A program made the position numbers and the translations under genes. A stretch of 38,260 nt of DNA from Acidimicrobiia bacterium (GTDB lineage Bacteria > Actinomycetota > Acidimicrobiia > IMCC26256 > PALSA-610), in assembly GCA_036271555.1 (NCBI GenBank), contig DATBAK010000054.1:1-38260 (forward strand), read 5' to 3'. Each line of letters starts with the position of its first letter. The first letter of the stretch is position 1. Of the stretch, positions 4,047-12,058 are shown piece by piece. The notes beneath the pieces were generated by a model. The model did not search any database, was not told the origin of the DNA, and worked only from the letters and a program-made list of their open reading frames with translations.

Positions 4047-4841
4047 TCAGGCCGACGGAGAGAGCGCGAACACCCTGGTCGCGTTGGCTCTCGTCGCGTC
4101 GGCGACGATCTCGACGGATTCGTCGCGAGCGGCCGCGAGCGCGGCTCCGACGACCGGGACCAGCGCGGGTTCGTTGCGCTTGCCGCGGTGCGGTACCGGC
4201 GCGAGGAACGGCGCGTCGGTCTCGACGAGCAGCGCGTCGCGCGGCACGACGGCCGCGGCTTCGCGCACGTCGCTCGCCGACGCAAACGACACGATGCCGC
4301 TGAACGACAACAGCGCGTCGATCGCGAGCGCGCGGCGCGCTTCGTCGACGCCGCCGGTGAAGCAGTGGAAGATCGTGCGCGCGGGCACACCGCTCTCGGC
4401 GAGCACGCGGAACGTGTCGTCCCACGCGTCACGCGTGTGGATCACCAGCGCGCGATCGAGCTCGTGCGCGAGCGCGATCTGCGCCGCGAACGCGCGCGCC
4501 TGCGCGTCGCGCGGTGAATGCTCGTAGTGCAGATCGAAACCGGCTTCGCCGATCGCGACGACGCGCGCGCTCGAACGCGCGAGCGCGACGAGGTCGTCCC
4601 ACTCTGCATCGAGTCGCGACGCGTCGTGCGGGTGCAGCCCGACGGTCGCGTAGACGTTCGGATGCCGCTCCGCGAGCTCGACCGCGGCGCGCGACGTCGC
4701 CAGGTCGGTGCCCACGCACACGAACGCGGCCACGCCCGCGTCGGCGGCACGCGCGAGGTCGCCTTCGGGGTCGGCGGGCGGGTGGTCGGGACGCTCGGGC
4801 TCCCACTGGAGATGGCAGTGGGAGTCGATCCAGGCGACCAT
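4047..4841 (-). CDS. tatD: TatD family metal-dependent DNase/hydrolase
   Basis: MVAWIDSHCHL N-terminus, GEAGFDLHYE, ETDAPFL motifs; ATG 4841..4839 overlaps metG stop (ATGA). Confidence 0.85.
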   Translation of the reverse strand: MVAWIDSHCHLQWEPERPDHPPADPEGDLARAADAGVAAFVCVGTDLATSRAAVELAERHPNVYATVGLHPHDASRLDAEWDDLVALARSSARVVAIGEAGFDLHYEHSPRDAQARAFAAQIALAHELDRALVIHTRDAWDDTFRVLAESGVPARTIFHCFTGGVDEARRALAIDALLSFSGIVSFASASDVREAAAVVPRDALLVETDAPFLAPVPHRGKRNEPALVPVVGAALAAARDESVEIVADATRANATRVFALSPSA

Positions 4842-6403
4842 CAGGCGTCGGCGCGCTCGATGCGGGGGAAGAGCGGCGCGCCGCGCTCGAGGGGGCTCCC
4901 CACCGGGAGAGAACCCCAGGTCGCGGCGCCTGGGAGCCGCTGATCCTCGGGCCGGCCGGCGAGCCCGAGCCGCCGCCAGAGCTCCGCTGCCGCGTGGGGG
5001 ATCGCCGGCGACGCGAGCAGCGCGACGAGTCGCAGGGCCTCGAGACACGCGCCGATCACCGCCGCGGTCGCCGCGGTATCGCCCGCCTTGTTCGTGGCCC
5101 ACGGTTGGCGGTCCTCGATGTACGCGTTGGTCGCGCCGATCAGATCCCACACCGCGCCGAACGCGGAGGAGAACGCGAGTCGCTCCATCGCGTCGCACTG
5201 CGCGGTGAACGCGGACTCCGCCGCGGCGCGCAGCACCGAGTCGTCGCGCGCGTCGGGCACGACACCGCCGCAGTAGTTCGTCGCCATCGTGAGCACGCGG
5301 TTCGCGAGGTTCCCGAAGTTGTTCGCGAGATCCGCGTTGTAGCGCGCGACCATCGCCTCGTACGAGAAGTCACCGTCGGGACCGAAGCGTTGGTCGGCGA
5401 GGAAGTGGTAGCGCACACCGTCGACGCCGAAGTCGCGCACGAGATCCGCGGGCGCGATCTGGTTCATGCTCGTCTTCGACATCTTCTCGCCGCCGACGAG
5501 CAGCCAGCCGTGCGCGAACACGCACTTCGGCAGTTCGAGCCCCGCGCTCATCAGCATCGCGGGCCAGTACACGGCGTGAAAGCGCAGGATGTCCTTGCCG
5601 ACGAGGTGGTAGTTCGCGGGCCAATAGCGATCGAAACGCTCCGGATCGGTGCCGTAGCCGATCGCGGTGCAGTAGTTGAAGAGCGCGTCGGCCCACACGT
5701 ACGCGACGTGCTTCTCGTCCCACGGCAACGGGACACCCCACGTGATCGACGTGCGGCTCATCGAGAAGTCGCGCAGCCCCGACTTGATGAACCCGAGCAC
5801 CTCGTTACGACGCGTGTCCGGCTGCACCGCCTCGGGATGCTCCTCGTAGTGAGCCAGGAGCCGCTCCTCGAAGCGAGAGAGCTTGAAGAAGTAGTTCTCC
5901 TCGGTGACCCGCTCGACGGGTCGGGCGTGGATCGGACAGAGCCCGTCGACGAGCTCGTCCTCGGTGTAATACGCCTCACAGGAGACGCAATAGAGGCCCT
6001 CGTAGACGCCGAGCTCGACGTCGCCGGCGTCGTACAGCGTCTGCAGGAACTGCTGGACGGCGACGCGATGACGGGGCTCGGTCGTGCGGATGAAGTCGTC
6101 GTATGCGATGTCGAGCAGGTCCCAGGCCTCGCGGAACTGCGCGCTCGTGCGGTCGACCATCTCCTGCGGTGAGATCCCGTTCGCCTCGGCCGCGCGCTGC
6201 AGCTTGAGCCCGTGCTCGTCGGTTCCGGTCAGGTAGACGACGTCGTCGCCCCACAGCCGGCGCCACCGCGTGAGCGCGTCGCCCGACACCGTCGTATACG
6301 CATGACCGATGTGCGGCGCGTCGTTCGGGTAGTAGATCGGAGTCGTGACGTAGAACGGCTCGGGCACGGAAGCACGCCTCGCTCGGCTGGACGGTTCGCC
6401 CAT
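4841..6403 (-). CDS. metG: Methionine--tRNA ligase (MetRS)
   Basis: PFYVTTPIYYPNDAPHIGHAYTTV (HIGH motif), KMSKT motif (GGEKMSKTSMN); start taken at ATG 6403 (MGEPSS...); ORF-track start 6481 also possible. Confidence 0.85.
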   Translation of the reverse strand: MGEPSSRARRASVPEPFYVTTPIYYPNDAPHIGHAYTTVSGDALTRWRRLWGDDVVYLTGTDEHGLKLQRAAEANGISPQEMVDRTSAQFREAWDLLDIAYDDFIRTTEPRHRVAVQQFLQTLYDAGDVELGVYEGLYCVSCEAYYTEDELVDGLCPIHARPVERVTEENYFFKLSRFEERLLAHYEEHPEAVQPDTRRNEVLGFIKSGLRDFSMSRTSITWGVPLPWDEKHVAYVWADALFNYCTAIGYGTDPERFDRYWPANYHLVGKDILRFHAVYWPAMLMSAGLELPKCVFAHGWLLVGGEKMSKTSMNQIAPADLVRDFGVDGVRYHFLADQRFGPDGDFSYEAMVARYNADLANNFGNLANRVLTMATNYCGGVVPDARDDSVLRAAAESAFTAQCDAMERLAFSSAFGAVWDLIGATNAYIEDRQPWATNKAGDTAATAAVIGACLEALRLVALLASPAIPHAAAELWRRLGLAGRPEDQRLPGAATWGSLPVGSPLERGAPLFPRIERADA

Positions 6404-6501
6404 TCTGACCGGTGGGGAGCCCGTTCCCGCGACGAAAACGCTACGCTCCCCGGCCAGTGGGGCGCCCGATCGAGGCGTCACCGGCCCTGTGGGGGGAGTA
6501 C

Positions 6502-6621
6502 ATGAACTCCAGTCAGGCGCAGATCGCGGTCGCGGTCGTTACGCGCCCAACGCTGAACGCTCTGAAGGATCGGAGTGGTCCGAACGCTTCGGATCCGGCG
6601 ACCGTGGTCGAAGCCGCATGA
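6502..6621 (+). CDS. Candidate 39-aa upstream ORF coupled to the AbrB-like gene
   Basis: GGGGGGAG immediately upstream, ATG 6502, MNSSQAQIAVAVVTRPTLNALKDRSGPNASDPATVVEAA, TGA 6619-6621 overlapping ATG 6618 (ATGA). Speculative. Confidence 0.2.
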   Translation: MNSSQAQIAVAVVTRPTLNALKDRSGPNASDPATVVEAA

Positions 6622-6923
6622 ACTCCATCGGCATGACCCGCCGCATCGACGCGCTCGGACGGATCGTGGTCCCGGCCGAGCTCCGCCGCATCCTCGAGAT
6701 CGGGGTCGGTGATCTGCTCGACATCCGTGTCGACGGCGGCCACCTCGTACTCGCCAAGGTCGAACGAACGTGCGTGTTCTGCAGCTCCTCCGACGGGCTC
6801 AGTCCCTATCGCGACAAGCTCGTGTGCGCGGCGTGCGTCGAGATGCTGACGGTCGGCGTCACCGCGAACGGTCAGGACTCGACGTTCACCACCACCGACG
6901 GGAGCTCGACCGCGAGCTCGTAG
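6618..6923 (+). CDS. AbrB/MazE/SpoVT-family DNA-binding protein with C-terminal CxxC...CxxC zinc-ribbon-like tail
   Basis: MNSIGMTRRIDALGRIVVPAELRRILEIGVGDLLDIRVDGGHLVLAKV aligns with AbrB N-domain (MKSTGIVRKVDELGRVVIPIELRR); followed by CVFC...CAAC; divergent from metG. Confidence 0.7.
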   Translation: MNSIGMTRRIDALGRIVVPAELRRILEIGVGDLLDIRVDGGHLVLAKVERTCVFCSSSDGLSPYRDKLVCAACVEMLTVGVTANGQDSTFTTTDGSSTASS

Positions 6924-7729
6924 GCCCGCCGGCGCGCGATGCCGAGCGCACCCGCGACGCTCGCGGCCGCATCCCGACGGCTCGCGCCCGCGGCGAGCGA
7001 GCGCGTCAGCGCGGAACGGATCTCCTCGTCGCCGACCGGCGCAGGTGGGCCCGCGGGCGCGACGAGCACCACGCACTCGCCGCGCAGGTCGCGCGCCGCG
7101 AACTGCTCCGCGAGCTCACCGAGCGTGCCGCGCTGCACCTCCTCGTGCAGCTTCGTGAGCTCGCGTGCGACGACCGCGCGGCGGTCCTCGCCGAGCGCGT
7201 CGCGCAGCTCGGCGAGCGTCGCCGCGACCCTCATCGGTGACTCCAGGAGGATTGTCGTCGCGTGTGCACGTCGGAGCGCGTCGATCCGCTCGGCGCGCGC
7301 CGCACCCTTGCGCGCGAGGAAGCCTTCGAAGACGAACGGCGTCGCCGGCAGGCCCGACACGACGAGCGCGGCGAGCACCGCGCTCGGACCCGGCACGACC
7401 TCGACCGGCAACTCCGCGTCGATGCACGCGCGCACGATTCGCTCGCCGGGATCCGACACTGCGGGCGTACCCGCGTCCGTCACGAGCACGACTCGACTAC
7501 CGGCGCGGATCAACTCGACGATGCGCGCGGATTCGCGCTGCTCGTTGTGCGCGTGCACCGAGCGCAGCCGATTCCCGGCCGGGATGTCGGTGAGGCTCAG
7601 CAGCTTTCGGGTCTGGCGGGTGTCCTCCGCGGCGATGACGTCGGCGCCGCGGAGCTCGTCGGCGGCGCGGGGCGAGAGGTCGCGCAGGTTGCCGATCGGG
7701 GTCGAGACCACGACGAGTGCTCCGGTCAC
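6872..7729 (-). CDS. rsmI: 16S rRNA (cytidine1402-2'-O)-methyltransferase RsmI
   Basis: GALVVVSTPIGNLRDLSPRA...DVIAAEDTRQTRKLL, tetrapyrrole-methylase fold motifs; GTG start at 7729 overlapping DUF192 stop (GTGA); 3' end overlaps the convergent AbrB-like gene by ~50 nt. Confidence 0.85.
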   Translation of the reverse strand: MTGALVVVSTPIGNLRDLSPRAADELRGADVIAAEDTRQTRKLLSLTDIPAGNRLRSVHAHNEQRESARIVELIRAGSRVVLVTDAGTPAVSDPGERIVRACIDAELPVEVVPGPSAVLAALVVSGLPATPFVFEGFLARKGAARAERIDALRRAHATTILLESPMRVAATLAELRDALGEDRRAVVARELTKLHEEVQRGTLGELAEQFAARDLRGECVVLVAPAGPPAPVGDEEIRSALTRSLAAGASRRDAAASVAGALGIARRRAYELAVELPSVVVNVES

Positions 7730-8055
7730 CCGCGAACCTCGATGATGTCGCCGACCTCGAGCTTCCAGCGATCGAACGCGCCGGCGGACGCCTCGATCGC
7801 GAAGTACGCGCGCGGCACCGGCCGCGACAGCCGCCACGGCGCGAGCGTCGTCATGTGCAGGACGAACCCGTCGCGATCGCAGAAGGCGACATCGAGGGGG
7901 AATCGCATCCCGAGCGAGTGCACCTGACGGCACGGTCGCAGCACGATCGCGCCGTCCTGCGCGTCGCGACCGAGCAGACCACGTCGCCGCTGCCGGCGGG
8001 TCACCGCCACCTCGGCCGCGGCCAGCACGTCGTCGCCGCGAACCAGCCAGGCCAT
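7726..8055 (-). CDS. DUF192 (COG1430) domain protein
   Basis: 109 aa; RRRGLLGR...HSLGMRFPLDVAFCDRDGFV...YFAIEASAG pattern of DUF192. Confidence 0.65.
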   Translation of the reverse strand: MAWLVRGDDVLAAAEVAVTRRQRRRGLLGRDAQDGAIVLRPCRQVHSLGMRFPLDVAFCDRDGFVLHMTTLAPWRLSRPVPRAYFAIEASAGAFDRWKLEVGDIIEVRG

Positions 8056-8059
8056 GACG

Positions 8060-9103
8060 TCAGACGTTGAAGCGGATCTCGAGCACGTCGCCGTCGCGCA
8101 CTTCGTACTCCTTGCCCTCGAGCCGGATCTTGTTGAGCTCCTTCGCCTTCGCCCAGGACCCGACGTCGAGCAACTCCTGCCAGTCGATCGCCTCGGCGCG
8201 GATGAAGCCGCGCTGGAGATCGGAGTGGATCACGCCCGCGCACTCGGGCGCGCGGGCGCCGGCGCGGAACGTCCACGCGCGCGTCTCGTCGGGACCGGTC
8301 GTGAGGAACGTGCGCCGGTTCAAGAGCTCGTACGCGCGGCGCGCGAGACGGGGCACGACGCTCTCGCCGATGCCGAACGTCTCGAGCATCTCGAAGCGCT
8401 CGTCGGGCTCGCACGCCGCGATCTCGGACTCGACTTCCACGCACGCGGCGAGCGCGTCGGTCCCGAAGGGCGCGGCGACGGCATCGCCGTCGGCGACCTG
8501 GTCCTCGGCGACGTTCACGACGACGAGATGCGGCTTGCTGGTCAGCAGGAAGCACGGCGCGAGCAACGTGCGCTCGTCCGCGCTCAGCTCCGATCGGTAG
8601 ATCGGGGTACCCGCTTCGAGCACCGTGTGCGCGTGCTCGAGCGCCGCGATCTCGGGCAGCAGCGATTTGTCGCCCTTCGCCGCGCGCCGCTGACGGTCGG
8701 TGCGGCCCTCGACCGTCGCGAGGTCGGCGATCACGAGCTCGAGCTCGAGTCCCGCGAGGTCGCCGGTCGGATCGGCGGGGCCGGCCACCGGGCTGTCGAA
8801 GGCGCGCAGCACGAACAGGATCGCGTCGCAGTTGCGGAGCGCGCCGAGGAAGCGGGTGCCGAGCCCTTCACCGGGCTTCGCGCCGGGCGGGAGCGCGATG
8901 TGCACGAGCTCGAAGCCCGCGTGCACGACCTTCTTCGACTGCGACATCGAGGTGAGCCGCTCGACGCGCTCGTCGGGCACCGGCGCGATCGCGACCGCCG
9001 ACTCGAAGACCCCTGGATCGGGGAGGCCCGTGAGGGCGCTGAAAAGGAGGTTCGAGCCCGCGTCGGAGAGACCGACGAGTCCGAGGTTCTCCATACGGAC
9101 CAT
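8060..9103 (-). CDS. ychF: YchF/Ola1-family ribosome-binding ATPase homolog with degenerate Walker A
   Basis: Full-length collinear similarity to E. coli YchF (ALTGLPDP.., LLTSKPHLVVVNVAED, TGPDETRAWT, IHSDLQRGFIRAE, C-terminal TGS-like EVRDGDVLEIRFNV) but P-loop reads GLVGLSDAGSNLLFSALTG instead of GxVGLPNVGKSTLFNALT. Confidence 0.8.
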   Translation of the reverse strand: MVRMENLGLVGLSDAGSNLLFSALTGLPDPGVFESAVAIAPVPDERVERLTSMSQSKKVVHAGFELVHIALPPGAKPGEGLGTRFLGALRNCDAILFVLRAFDSPVAGPADPTGDLAGLELELVIADLATVEGRTDRQRRAAKGDKSLLPEIAALEHAHTVLEAGTPIYRSELSADERTLLAPCFLLTSKPHLVVVNVAEDQVADGDAVAAPFGTDALAACVEVESEIAACEPDERFEMLETFGIGESVVPRLARRAYELLNRRTFLTTGPDETRAWTFRAGARAPECAGVIHSDLQRGFIRAEAIDWQELLDVGSWAKAKELNKIRLEGKEYEVRDGDVLEIRFNV

Positions 9104-9109
9104 TCTGTC

Positions 9110-9180
9110 TCGTCGCGCTCGCTGCGCTCGCCGCTCCGGACGCCGCAGCCCGCGATTCGGGCGGGCCGCACGGCGACCCG
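9110..9180 (+). repeat. Dispersed intergenic repeat, type I copy with GGGCGGGCCGCACGGCGACCCG tail module
   Basis: tcgtcgcgctcgctgcgctcgccgctccggacgcc...gggcgggccgcacggcgacccg between ychF start and bL37; tail module shared with copies at 20565-20595 and 22045-22075(-). Confidence 0.6.
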
Positions 9181-9241
9181 GCCGTCTGGTGCGAACGTGG
9201 TTCGCCGCCGGACGCGCCCTTCAGGTAGCGTGCCCGTTCTC

Positions 9242-9328
9242 ATGAGCAAGAAGAGCAAGCTCCGTCGACTGCGCGCCCGCCGGAACAAGGCGAACCACGG
9301 CAAGAAGCCGCGCGCCGGCCGCCGTTAA
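9242..9328 (+). CDS. 50S ribosomal protein bL37-like small basic protein (28 aa)
   Basis: ATG 9242, MSKKSKLRRLRARRNKANHGKKPRAGRR, TAA 9326-9328; KANHGKKP core matches mycobacterial bL37 (..KANHGKRPN..). Hidden at the tail of a long antisense ORF (8054..9328). Confidence 0.6.
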   Translation: MSKKSKLRRLRARRNKANHGKKPRAGRR

Positions 9329-9330
9329 TT

Positions 9331-9416
9331 CTGGTCGGGCTCGCAAGCTTCGCCCTCCCCGACGCCTCAATCCCCAGCCGAGGTCGCGCTGCTCGCTTCG
9401 CTCACGCGCTCAGGCG
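9331..9416 (+). repeat. Dispersed intergenic repeat, type II copy (GGTCGGGCTCGCAAGCTTCGCCCTCC...GACGCCTCA)
   Basis: tggtcgggctcgcaagcttcgccctccccgacgcctcaa...gctcgcttcgctcacgcgctcaggcg directly after bL37 stop; supplies stop and C-terminal codons of the convergent membrane protein gene. Confidence 0.65.
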
Positions 9417-9852
9417 CGAACACCGTGCCGTGAGGCAGCCGCGCCCGTTCGAGCCACAGGATCAGGAGCCCGAGGACCGAGGTCGACGCGAGGCTCGCGA
9501 GCAGCGCCACGCTCTGCGTGCCGTCGAACGGTCCGAGATGGCGCGCGTGGTACACGAAGTGCGGCACGCCGTACACGAGCCATCCCAGCGAGGCCGCGAC
9601 GATCGTCGAGCGCGCGAGCGACACGAGCGCGCAGAGGCTGACGACCGCGAGCGCGAGGTTCAGCGCGCCGACGTCGCGCACGAGATGCTCGTTGTACGGC
9701 CCGTCGACCGCGACCCATATCTGTCCGAGGCCCGGGAACTTGTCGTAGAACGAACGGGGCGCGAACGCGGCCCAGCCTCCGACGGTCACGCCCGAGATCG
9801 TCAGGATCGCGAGCAGCACGCGCTGCGCGGCGCCGACTCTGTCGTCACCCAC
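9367..9852 (-). CDS. Hypothetical integral membrane protein (about 4 TM helices)
   Basis: 161 aa, hydrophobic segments VLLAILTISGVTVGGWAAFA, ALNLALAVVSLCALVSLA, SLGWLVYGVPHFVY, VALLASLASTSVLGLLILWL; C-terminal 15 aa encoded inside repeat copy. Confidence 0.55.
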   Translation of the reverse strand: MGDDRVGAAQRVLLAILTISGVTVGGWAAFAPRSFYDKFPGLGQIWVAVDGPYNEHLVRDVGALNLALAVVSLCALVSLARSTIVAASLGWLVYGVPHFVYHARHLGPFDGTQSVALLASLASTSVLGLLILWLERARLPHGTVFAPERVSEASSATSAGD

Positions 9853-10777
9853 GGGAACCTCCTCGTCTCGCGGCGGCGACGGCCTTCCAGCCCTCGACCG
9901 CGCTCGGATGCTCGGGCGCCCAATCGGTCACGCCCGTGAACGCGGCATGGCTGACGCGCTGTGAGCGCATCATCGCCTCGGCCGCGGCGCCACCGAGCTT
10001 CAACATCCACGTCGGCAGGATGCGCAGCGTGCCGAGCCCGAACGCCGCGGCGAACGCGTCCGCGTACTCGCGACGCGTGAGCGGAACGTCGTCGACGACG
10101 TTGTAGACGCCCGCGGGTGCGCGCACCGACGCGGCGACCGCGCGTCCCGCGTCGTCGGTGCCGATCGACGAGAAGTAACCGTCGGGAGCGCCGAGCGCCG
10201 GCGCGAGCTTCCACTTCGCGAGCCCGAGCAGCTCGTCGGTGCTGCGCGCGTCGGCGCCGTAGAACGCACCGAACCGCAGCGCGATACCTGCGCCGCCTTC
10301 GGCCGTGAACCGCTCGACTTCGTGCTCGAGCGCGATCACCGGTCGCATCGCGGCGATCGACGCCTCGACCGGTGAGTGCTCGTCGAGCCACGACGACCCA
10401 CCGTCGCGATAGATGAAGCTGATCGACTCCGCGACGAAGCGGCCGACACCGTTCGCGAGCGCGGCGTCGACGAGCACCCGCGTGCCCGTCTCCCGCAGCT
10501 TGGTGTTCTCGGCCCACGTCGACGCGCGCCACCCGCGCGTGAACGGTGGGATGCGCGTTGCGAGGTGCATGACGGCGTCGATGCCGGCGATCGCGCGCTT
10601 CATGTCGTCGACGTCGTACAGGTTGCCGACGAACGGCTCGGCACCGACCGCCGCGACCACCGCGGCGCGCTCGTCGTTGCGAGCGAGCGCGCGCACCGTG
10701 TGTCCGGAGTCGAGCAGCTGCGCGACCGAGGCTCTTCCGAGCACGCCCGTCGCGCCGGTGACGAAGATCGTTCCCAT
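9845..10777 (-). CDS. NAD(P)-dependent epimerase/dehydratase-family (atypical SDR) oxidoreductase
   Basis: MGTIFVTGATGVLGRASVAQLLDSGHTVRALAR Rossmann N-terminus; 310 aa. Confidence 0.75.
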   Translation of the reverse strand: MGTIFVTGATGVLGRASVAQLLDSGHTVRALARNDERAAVVAAVGAEPFVGNLYDVDDMKRAIAGIDAVMHLATRIPPFTRGWRASTWAENTKLRETGTRVLVDAALANGVGRFVAESISFIYRDGGSSWLDEHSPVEASIAAMRPVIALEHEVERFTAEGGAGIALRFGAFYGADARSTDELLGLAKWKLAPALGAPDGYFSSIGTDDAGRAVAASVRAPAGVYNVVDDVPLTRREYADAFAAAFGLGTLRILPTWMLKLGGAAAEAMMRSQRVSHAAFTGVTDWAPEHPSAVEGWKAVAAARRGGSRG

Positions 10778-10788
10778 GATCAGGCCTT

Positions 10789-10874
10789 TCTGGTCGCGCT
10801 CGCTGCGCTCGCCGCTCGGTGACGCGAGATGGGCCGCCGGCGAGGCCGCCCTGCTCGCTTCGCTCGACGGCTCA
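10789..10874 (+). repeat. Dispersed intergenic repeat, type I copy
   Basis: ctggtcgcgctcgctgcgctcgccgctcggtgacgc...ctgctcgcttcgctcgacggctcagcc between Rrf2 stop and epimerase start. Confidence 0.6.
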
Positions 10875-11378
10875 GCCGCTCACGGCCGTTCCTTTCGTAG
10901 CCGCCTGCAGCCACTCGATGCCCTTGGTGAGCGACGTGGGCGGCGCTTCGGTGAGGACGCCGTGCAGGAGCTCGGCGATCGTCGTGCTGCGCAGCGAGTC
11001 CCGCCACGCCCCGTCGGCGCGGACCATCGCCCGGTGGATGCCGCACACCGTCGAGTACTCCGACGCGCCGACCGCGGAGGGGCCGCGCTTGCGGATCTCG
11101 GTGCAACGGAACGCGGGCTTGGTGCCCTCGAGCGCCTCGACGACGTCGAGCACGGTGAGCTCCGCGGCGGGACGGGCGAGCCGATAGCCGCCCCTCGGTC
11201 CCGGCACCGCGACGAAGACGCCGGCCCGGGTCAGGGTCTGGAGGTGCTTCGCGAGGTAGGGCGCGGGCACGCCATGGAACTCGGCGAGCCGGGCTCCGCT
11301 CAGGCACGCCCCCTCGGGCAGCGCGCCGAGCACGGTCGCGCAGTGGACCGCCCACTCGACGCCGTCCGACATCCGCAT
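10872..11378 (-). CDS. Rrf2-family transcriptional regulator
   Basis: MRMSDGVEWAVHCATVLGALPEG...LSGARLAEFHGVPAPYLAKHLQTLTRAGVFVAVPGPRGGYRLARP winged-HTH typical of Rrf2; start at ATG 11378 (ORF-track N-terminal extension is junk). Confidence 0.8.
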   Translation of the reverse strand: MRMSDGVEWAVHCATVLGALPEGACLSGARLAEFHGVPAPYLAKHLQTLTRAGVFVAVPGPRGGYRLARPAAELTVLDVVEALEGTKPAFRCTEIRKRGPSAVGASEYSTVCGIHRAMVRADGAWRDSLRSTTIAELLHGVLTEAPPTSLTKGIEWLQAATKGTAVSG

Positions 11379-11382
11379 GTTC

Positions 11383-11409
11383 CGGATATTACGTATCCGT
11401 GATATCCGA
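11383..11409. promoter_or_regulatory. AT-rich composite inverted repeat (CGGATAT-N13-ATATCCG with inner GGATA-TTACG-TATCC)
   Basis: Only AT-rich island in the region; lies 5-30 nt upstream of the Rrf2 start (contains TAATAT -10-like hexamer on the Rrf2 strand) and ~170 nt upstream of the TnpB-fragment start. Confidence 0.5.
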
Positions 11410-11581
11410 CGCCAATCCCGCTTGCCGACGTGCGTCCGCGTCCTCCACGATGCGCCCGTCAACGGCATCTTGCAGGACGTCGTCGTCACGCGGCCGCAGG
11501 CGCGAGCGGAGCGAGCGTCGAGGCTCGCCAGGGAGCGCGCGAGTCGGCGACCCGCAGGGGAGCCGGCGAAGGAGCGAGCGA

Positions 11582-12058
11582 ATGAGCACGGCCAACGAAG
11601 TCGACATCCTCCCGGACCCCGATCAGCACGAGCTGCTGGTCGCGACGCTCGAGCGCGTCAACCGGGTCAGCAACGCGGCGCGGGTCGCCGCGCTCGCGCG
11701 CCCGGGCGGCGCGTCGAAGGACGAGCTGCGCGACATCGTCAGCCAGGAGATCGAGAAGGCGAAGCTGCCGGCCGGGTTCCACTCGCCGATCGTCGATCGG
11801 GTGCAGGCCGCGCTCGACAAGCGGCTGAAGAAGTTCTCGACCTACCAGTCGCTGACGCTGCCCGCATCGGCGTTCAAGTGGTCGTCCGACGGCCGGGTCG
11901 CGCTGCCGACCGCGAAGGGCCGCCGCACGATCCGCGTGCGCGTCGACATGACGCGCGGCGGACTGCGGCCGCCGCTCGAGGGTCGCCCGACGTCGATCGT
12001 CTACAGCAACGGCCAGTTCGCCCTCTGGGCCGCCGACGTCGACCGCCGCGAAGACTGA
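11582..12058 (+). pseudogene. Truncated IS200/IS605-family TnpB (OrfB) N-terminal fragment (158 aa)
   Basis: AAGGAG RBS 7 nt upstream; VDILPDPDQHELLVATLERVNRVSNAARVAAL.../...ALDKRLKKF.../...RVALPTAKGRRTIRVRVD...PTSIVYSNGQFALWAADVD aligns with TnpB N-terminus (e.g. ISDra2 [50 protein letters not shown]..); ORF stops at the RuvC-I position (AADVD) and is followed directly by a repeat copy. Confidence 0.6.

Follow-up and report, generated by a model that had tools for sequence, protein, structure and literature searches.

Can a YchF-type ATPase lose most of its nucleotide-binding motifs and still be maintained by selection? The question is raised by a ychF-like gene on the minus strand (8060..9094; 344 aa plus stop) of contig DATBAK010000054.1, from an Acidimicrobiia metagenome-assembled genome (MAG; assembly GCA_036271555.1); the window analyzed here is the whole stretch of 38,260 nucleotides. 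YchF/OLA1, a subfamily of the Obg-family TRAFAC P-loop NTPases, belongs to the small number of NTPases that are conserved across all domains of life. Since YchF is regarded as a universally conserved ATPase, an ortholog without a working nucleotide site would surprise specialists. A recent review describes the core function of YchF/OLA1 as unknown, along with the reason why it hydrolyzes ATP (PMC8779481). A preliminary description of the locus, made from the sequence alone, had reported a YchF homolog in which the GKST of the P-loop is replaced by GSNL. We find that the losses extend to further nucleotide motifs, are shared by a clade of intact genes under purifying selection, and affect the gene that occupies the ancestral ychF locus. 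With a probability that we put at about 0.6, this gene, from a lineage of uncultured Acidimicrobiia, is the positional ychF ortholog with a G domain that is now a pseudo-NTPase, and it encodes a nucleotide-independent ribosome-binding factor.

The open reading frame 8060..9103(-) given in the preliminary description exists and encodes 347 aa, of which the start at 9103 contributes an additional MVR; its start should probably be moved to the ATG at 9094, since an identical database protein (P0001/HEX4492187.1) and nearly all homologs begin with MENLG. A stop codon upstream of 9103 rules out an alternative upstream start as the source of a P-loop. The GC content of the window is 71%, and that of third codon positions (GC3) in the ychF-like frame is 0.94, typical for real genes in the window. 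The full-length alignment with YchF/Ola1 claimed earlier was borne out by phmmer, which matched residues 7-347 end to end with solved structures (best PDB matches 2dby, 4.5e-67; 1jal, 1.2e-61; 8kie, 1.7e-60; OLA1, ~1e-40). An AlphaFold2 (AF2) model built on 87 homologs had a predicted local distance difference test score (pLDDT) of 92.7 and a predicted template modeling score (pTM) of 0.89. In Foldseek comparisons, this model gave template modeling (TM) scores of 0.79-0.87 to nine solved YchF/OLA1 entries, with 0.84-0.87 to 2dby and to the ribosome-bound 8kie_y, and of only 0.52 to Rbg1, the next family. Both the model and these matches span the G domain, and its fold is thus predicted to be kept. 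The inserted helical (coiled-coil) domain lies at 8525..8779(-), approximately residues 106-190, as judged from AF2 helices 109-139 and 143-160 and from alignment to YchF structures. The C-terminal YchF_C/TGS-like domain, also noted previously, lies at 8063..8311(-), matches PF06071 at 3e-32, and is the best-conserved part of the protein.

Family models already separate this protein from canonical YchF. A Pfam search of the window protein for an MMR_HSR1 G-domain match gave none, and cross-matches to Obg G-domain models, kept in the canonical sisters, are all lost in the degenerate forms. The NCBIfam model TIGR00092 scored the window protein at 257.9 bits, under its equivalog cutoff of 279.2; the degenerate relatives reached 243-267 bits, compared with 328-364 bits for the canonical sisters P0081, P0109, and P0122. 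The score under the cutoff accounts for the NCBI name of HEX4492187.1, "DUF933 domain-containing protein".

The motifs themselves were compared in alignments of 46 canonical and 26 degenerate sequences. The G1/Walker A motif (9047..9073(-), residues 8-16) reads GLSDAGSNL, compared with GLPNVGKST in YchF (GLVGLSDAGSNLLFSALTG versus GIVGLPNVGKSTLFNALT), which agrees with the replacement of GKST reported in the preliminary description: Lys is changed to Ser, Ser to Asn, and Thr to Leu. The GxxxxG glycines are kept, and the P-loop Asn is replaced by Asp. The Walker A Lys is present in 46/46 canonical and 0/26 degenerate sequences. A shift of the alignment that would bring another Lys into the loop is excluded, as residues 1-53 are Lys-free. 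The switch I/G2 remnant LPDPGVFES (8999..9025(-)) carries a six-residue deletion relative to canonical PHPFSTTE, which takes out the conserved Thr and the position equivalent to Cys35; the Thr column is deleted in all 26 degenerate sequences and holds Thr in 41 of the 46 canonical ones. The G3/Walker B/switch II remnant, aligned as HIAL-PPGAKPGEGLG (8858..8902(-)), shows DIAG changed to HIAL, with Asp replaced by His, the DxxG Gly lost, and one residue deleted, and the downstream GEGLG kept; other degenerate subtypes have YIPG or FIPG at this site. This remnant is the least confident region of the AF2 model (residues 71-80, pLDDT 68). Finally, a shortened loop, FDSPVAGPADP (8768..8800(-)), contains no His and replaces the FENDDIVHVxGxxDP loop that carries His114, the catalytic residue of E. 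coli YchF (PMC11814078, PMC10144078).

The exception is G4. The NVAED motif of the YchF NxxE type (8501..8515(-); NVAE, residues 194-197) is kept in the window protein, as stated earlier. Across the degenerate clade, its Asn is found in 19/26 sequences (46/46 canonical) and its Glu in 18/26 (44/46 canonical), with variants such as NTGEK, GIDET, and HVSED; this relaxation is the pattern expected if selection for nucleotide binding were gone. Helix alpha1 (LFSALTG, 9026..9046(-)) has columns L17, F18, A20, L21, and T22 invariant across the clade. As read from these alignments, the window protein has lost four of the five nucleotide motifs and retains G4 NVAE, the GxxxxG glycines, helix alpha1, and the GEGLG segment. 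The decay is hence wider than the loss of GKST described at the outset, with switch I, G3, and the His114 loop also gone. We infer that binding of Mg-ATP or Mg-GTP has been lost, leaving no hydrolysis cycle, and that the protein is a pseudoGTPase of the class i type.

These losses are not peculiar to one assembly. Among the best 120 homologs from 5.8 billion proteins, 114 have a Lys-less P-loop, 5 a canonical one, and 1 is a fragment, and all named homologs come from Acidimicrobiia or Actinomycetota MAGs. The Lys-less homologs share these losses, and their reading frames, 334-355 aa long, are intact. The degenerate P-loop is thus conserved in orthologs, a point on which the preliminary description had proposed a check, and its breadth speaks against the sequencing or assembly error that had been offered as a possible refutation. 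The clade comprises three internally conserved subtypes: that of the window, AG[SA]N(R/L) with HI/HL-ALPPGAKPGEGLG; a second, SGH[GA] with YIPGVAPGGKxGEGLG; and a third, ADSGHG with AYLPGLS. Compared with its 88%-identical ortholog at locus L005, the window gene has a ratio of nonsynonymous to synonymous substitution rates (dN/dS) of 0.12 for the whole gene, 0.08-0.11 for the degenerate N-terminal part (0.08 for residues 1-100), and 0.067 for the TGS domain. At greater divergence, degenerate pairs gave 0.23-0.30 and a canonical pair 0.29, values that are rough because synonymous sites are near saturation: with GC3 at about 94%, the proportion of synonymous differences (pS) plateaus near 0.45, which inflates dN/dS at depth. 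We therefore took only the closest pair (0.12) at face value and used the distant pairs solely to compare degenerate with canonical genes. By these estimates, purifying selection on the degenerate gene is as strong as on its canonical relatives. Strong conservation despite the motif loss suggests that whatever maintains this selection is probably independent of ATP.

In neighbor-joining (NJ) trees, the degenerate clade is sister to a canonical Acidimicrobiia group (P0081/P0082/P0102/P0109/P0116 and locus L007). The joint clade received 92% bootstrap with the full alignment and 73% with the C-terminal part only, and monophyly of the degenerate sequences received 99% with the full alignment. We favor one loss event behind the degenerate clade, partly on the basis of the common six-residue deletion in switch I. 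The canonical sister P0081 (352 aa) has the P-loop GLPNSGKSSLFNALTG, the G3 motif VDIAAL, and the switch I sequence PHPFSTME, which is PHPFSTTE in its canonical relatives. It is 66% identical to the window protein by tblastn and 67-68% in protein alignments, with 80% identity in the TGS domain and 54-68% in the other domains.

The locus indicates what this gene descends from. Immediately downstream of ychF lie a DUF192 gene (7726..8055(-); PF02643, 3.8e-15), whose start is 4 nt after the ychF stop, and rsmI, encoding a protein of the 16S rRNA 2'-O-methyltransferase family (6872..7729(-); PF00590, 3.9e-34, plus RsmI_C), whose start, at 7729 by analogy with L005, overlaps the DUF192 stop. The family matches and the synteny support the rsmI-DUF192 neighborhood mentioned in the preliminary description. 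Judging from the spacing, the DUF192 gene is probably co-transcribed with ychF, and the tight arrangement of all three genes suggests translational coupling. Further downstream, metG, encoding methionyl-tRNA synthetase (4841..6481(-); PF09334, 2e-106), serves as a syntenic anchor, and ksgA (1233-2075) belongs to the same conserved order. Around canonical P0081, the order is 4HBT-ABC-UPF0014-ychF-DUF192-rsmI-(mazE-like, opposite strand)-metG-tatD-rpf-ksgA-ispE-glmU; the degenerate P0009 and P0002 have the same order from ychF to glmU, and the window matches it too. Of 38 Acidimicrobiia loci compared, most have the ychF-DUF192-rsmI arrangement, and all of the degenerate ones do; these loci cover Microthrixaceae, Ilumatobacteraceae, Iamiaceae, and Acidimicrobiaceae. 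Because the gene occupies the locus that holds canonical ychF in other Acidimicrobiia, it is, by synteny, a positional ortholog of ychF and not an obvious paralog. The alternative of "pseudo-ATPase or diverged paralog" left by the preliminary description is thus narrowed: the shared motif losses and purifying selection favor a pseudo-ATPase in silico, and the position in the ancestral ychF locus argues against a paralog.

Comparison with the canonical Acidimicrobiia proteins, which share the identical locus, suggests how the site decayed. Both they and the window protein are without the His114 loop and a nine-residue segment after G4, but the canonical proteins have GLPNSGKS(S/T), PHPFSTTE, and VDIAAL and, with 328-335 bits, score above the TIGR00092 cutoff. 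The His114 loop is absent from all Acidimicrobiia YchF, including the canonical P-loop forms (L007, L011-L039, L046, and the P0081 group), and the canonical sister group has DIAA in place of DIAG, without the DxxG Gly. The class-wide absence of the loop together with DIAA in the sisters suggests that the ATPase chemistry was altered before the P-loop was lost. The decay looks stepwise: the His114 loop would have gone in all Acidimicrobiia, followed by the change to DIAA and then by the loss of G1-G3 in the clade of the window protein.

What such a protein could do is suggested by work on E. coli YchF. In a 2025 cryo-EM study, YchF(H114A) was bound to the 50S subunit "mainly through the helical domain", with tip residues K149, K152, K156, and K159 touching 23S H62 and helices touching uL14 and bL19, and the authors considered the ATPase to serve probably for release and not for subunit dissociation (PMC11814078). 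The corresponding basic tip of the window protein, DRQRRAAKGDKS (8663..8698(-)), has R137, K140, and K143 at the positions of E. coli K149, K152, and K156, and these are R/K in 22-26 of the 26 degenerate sequences; the fourth tip position is variable, in canonical sequences as well. E. coli YchF(N20pBpa) cross-links to initiation factor 3 (IF3) (PMC8138138), and helix alpha1 of the window protein corresponds to the region around N20. Becker et al. found the apo and ATP conformations to be alike and the ADP form to be different (PMC3583859), so that an empty G domain could mimic the binding-competent state. On this basis, the window protein may dock on the large ribosomal subunit through its basic helical tip, at the site equivalent to E. 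coli 23S H62/uL14/bL19, with the TGS-like domain and helix alpha1 providing further ribosome or factor contacts. It would then act as a constitutive, concentration-controlled modulator of translation, by anti-association or by sensing the state of the ribosome, rather than as an ATP-timed switch, and its release could depend on intrinsically weak affinity or on changes in expression in place of ATP hydrolysis.

Several points weigh against a nucleotide-independent ribosome-binding factor. ATPase-deficient E. coli YchF neither complemented cold sensitivity nor conferred sensitivity to reactive oxygen species (PMC8779481), which indicates that hydrolysis matters for the known phenotypes. Ribosome binding by E. 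coli YchF also varies with nucleotide state (PMC11814078, PMC3583859), and an empty G domain might accordingly bind poorly. The GxxxxG glycines and helix alpha1 are retained, as is NVAE in the window protein, and most relatives carry either a His in place of the lost Lys or an Arg two positions after it. Bootstrap for degenerate monophyly is 54% when the N-terminal third of the alignment, the part carrying the shared losses, is left out. Lastly, a second, canonical ychF elsewhere in these genomes would also count against it, and the fact that no assembly was matched twice among the best 80 genome loci listed is weak evidence for a single copy.

The retained residues bear most directly on a different explanation, namely that the protein still binds ATP, GTP, or the alarmone ppGpp non-canonically, either as a hydrolysis-dead ligand sensor comparable to a class ii/iii pseudoGTPase or as a slow enzyme with substitute residues. 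G8, G13, helix alpha1, and the GEGLG segment are invariant, NVAE is intact in the window protein, and each subtype has conserved replacements of its own (Asn15 and Arg16 in AG[SA]NR; His at the Lys position in SGHG). The strong purifying selection on the N-terminal part (dN/dS 0.08-0.11) is likewise consistent with a bound ligand, and AtYchF1 is known to bind ppGpp (PMC9748339). However, none of the Lys, the Mg-coordinating Ser/Thr, the switch I Thr, or the Walker B Asp is left, and the loop has gained an acidic Asp. The candidate substitute Arg16 is Leu in the window protein and in several relatives, G4 is relaxed clade-wide, and the variation of the replacement residues between subtypes argues against a single conserved new binding chemistry. 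We consider a non-canonical ligand unlikely.

A second copy would offer another way out: the ATPase work could be done by a canonical ychF at another place in the genome, with the window copy being subfunctionalized to a scaffold role. The window spans only 38 kb, the genome check rests on the best 80 loci listed, and other phyla have YchF-like proteins with K->R or without the K, which may be paralogs. Against this, the degenerate gene sits at the ancestral ychF locus and not at a new site, and the nearest canonical relatives occupy the same syntenic locus in other assemblies, which identifies them as orthologs from other lineages. A tblastn search for a second ychF within the window found none, and the lack of a repeated assembly among those 80 loci extends to the 2.96-Mb contig BPGH01000001.1, which carries a degenerate copy and appears there once. 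We regard such a division of labor as quite improbable. Early pseudogenization can also resemble the loss of catalytic motifs, but a decaying pseudogene, or an artefact of sequencing or assembly in the P-loop, is very hard to reconcile with 114 independent homologs that share the same losses in intact frames of 334-355 aa, with a dN/dS of 0.12, a GC3 of 0.94, and a confident AF2 model, or with the tight spacing to DUF192 and rsmI; we consider it extremely improbable. The reading that we prefer remains that of a positional ortholog whose G domain has become a pseudo-NTPase.

The surroundings of the gene hold further features. A 28-aa basic open reading frame, MSKKSKLRRLRARRNKANHGKKPRAGRR (9242..9328(+)), is divergent from ychF, with 147 nt between it and the start of the ychF-like gene. 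In 22 Acidimicrobiia loci, both canonical and degenerate, near-identical small frames (MSKKTKKRKLRARRNKANHGKRPNAGRG-like) are found upstream of ychF. The NCBIfam bL37 model NF047428 scored the 28-aa frame at 18.4 bits (E 0.0018), under the cutoff of 30, and we regard its product as a candidate ribosomal protein resembling actinobacterial bL37; such frames seem to be missed by gene callers in most loci. Its 28 codons coincide with the final codons of an antisense frame, 8054..9328(+) (424 aa), which covers the entire ychF-like gene and is a typical shadow frame of high-GC DNA; we rejected it as a real gene, since the GC3 pattern and homology favor the minus strand. Farther upstream, at 9367-12058, the window has a gene set different from the ABC_tran/UPF0014 pair found upstream of ychF in L001/L002. 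It comprises a 161-aa membrane protein without a family match, an NAD-dependent epimerase/NmrA-like protein, an Rrf2 regulator, and a 219-aa frame (11399-12058(+)) for which Pfam and NCBIfam searches gave no match. In the closest relative, L005, the first three of these genes (Rrf2, epimerase, and a 150-aa protein) are likewise found upstream of ychF. On the other side, a mazE-like gene of the MazE/AbrB type (SpoVT-AbrB fold; 6489-6923(+)) lies between rsmI and metG and overlaps the 3' end of the rsmI frame. It has the same position in L001, L002, L003, and L005, and a toxin partner is not evident adjoining it.

Loss of the Walker A Lys also appears outside this clade. When 1.84 billion cluster representatives were scanned with HMMER, 123 of the best 150 matches were canonical, and the others were fragments, members of the clade of the window protein, or other Lys-less or K->R forms. 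K->R P-loops (GSGRRT or GSGRTT), or GKR for GKS, were seen in Acidobacteriota and other MAGs (the P0219 cluster of Vicinamibacteria, P0239, P0259, and P0228), with the GSGRRT form in Vicinamibacteria. A second large Lys-less clade was found in other "Actinomycetota bacterium" MAGs (P0160, P0320-P0437; locus L086, 7001-8017). Its P-loop is GLPGAG[SVTA][ST]T, and GK[ST] occurs in 0 of its 118 sequences among the matches listed. Like the window protein, its members match PF06071 only, bear the name "DUF933 domain-containing protein", and have a shortened switch I; their TIGR00092 score is 246 bits. They differ from the clade of the window protein in a P-loop that keeps Ser/Thr, in a G3 of VETSG, and in a different gene context, after a biotin carboxylase gene. 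The second clade branches with different canonical relatives (P0137, P0138), and its Lys was therefore lost independently. Whether the sole YchF ortholog is a nucleotide-free pseudo-ATPase across both of these Actinomycetota lineages, the clade of the window and the independent class-level clade, is a more tentative proposition, to which we give slightly less than even odds.

If a sole ortholog can indeed be nucleotide-free, YchF would be conserved for a nucleotide-independent interaction with the ribosome or with factors, the ATPase cycle would be a dispensable regulatory layer, and natural variants would cleanly separate the ATP-dependent from the ATP-independent roles of YchF/OLA1. The comparison of a degenerate protein with a canonical sister of about 66% identity provides a handle on which YchF activities need ATP, among them ribosome binding, subunit anti-association, interplay with IF3, and stress phenotypes. 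There is also a practical side to the annotation. Marker sets for bacterial phylogenomics and for estimates of genome completeness include TIGR00092. Insofar as it serves as such a marker, it would register as missing in the degenerate lineages.

A search of the full-text literature, with most subscription journals outside its scope, found no description of a Lys-less YchF. The window protein shares 36-43% full-length identity with known YchF/OLA1 proteins (E. coli YchF, H. influenzae HI0393/1jal, T. thermophilus 2dby, and human OLA1) and has the same three-domain layout of a G domain, an inserted helical coiled coil, and a C-terminal TGS-like/YchF_C domain. With respect to its nucleotide site, the closest parallels are class i pseudoGTPases such as the AAGAB pseudoGTPase domain (psGD), the p190RhoGAP pseudoGTPase domains, and degenerate septins (PMC12490416, PMC5593906, PMC10731463). 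Such proteins, which form a recognized category, likewise keep the G fold, have lost G motifs, and are presumed to have a scaffold or interaction role, and the known cases are mostly eukaryotic domains or paralogs. By contrast, the window protein, degenerate across its lineage, would apparently be the only ortholog of a bacterial NTPase that is universally conserved and associated with translation, and would thus add a bacterial case that is not a paralog to a mostly eukaryotic catalogue of pseudoGTPases.

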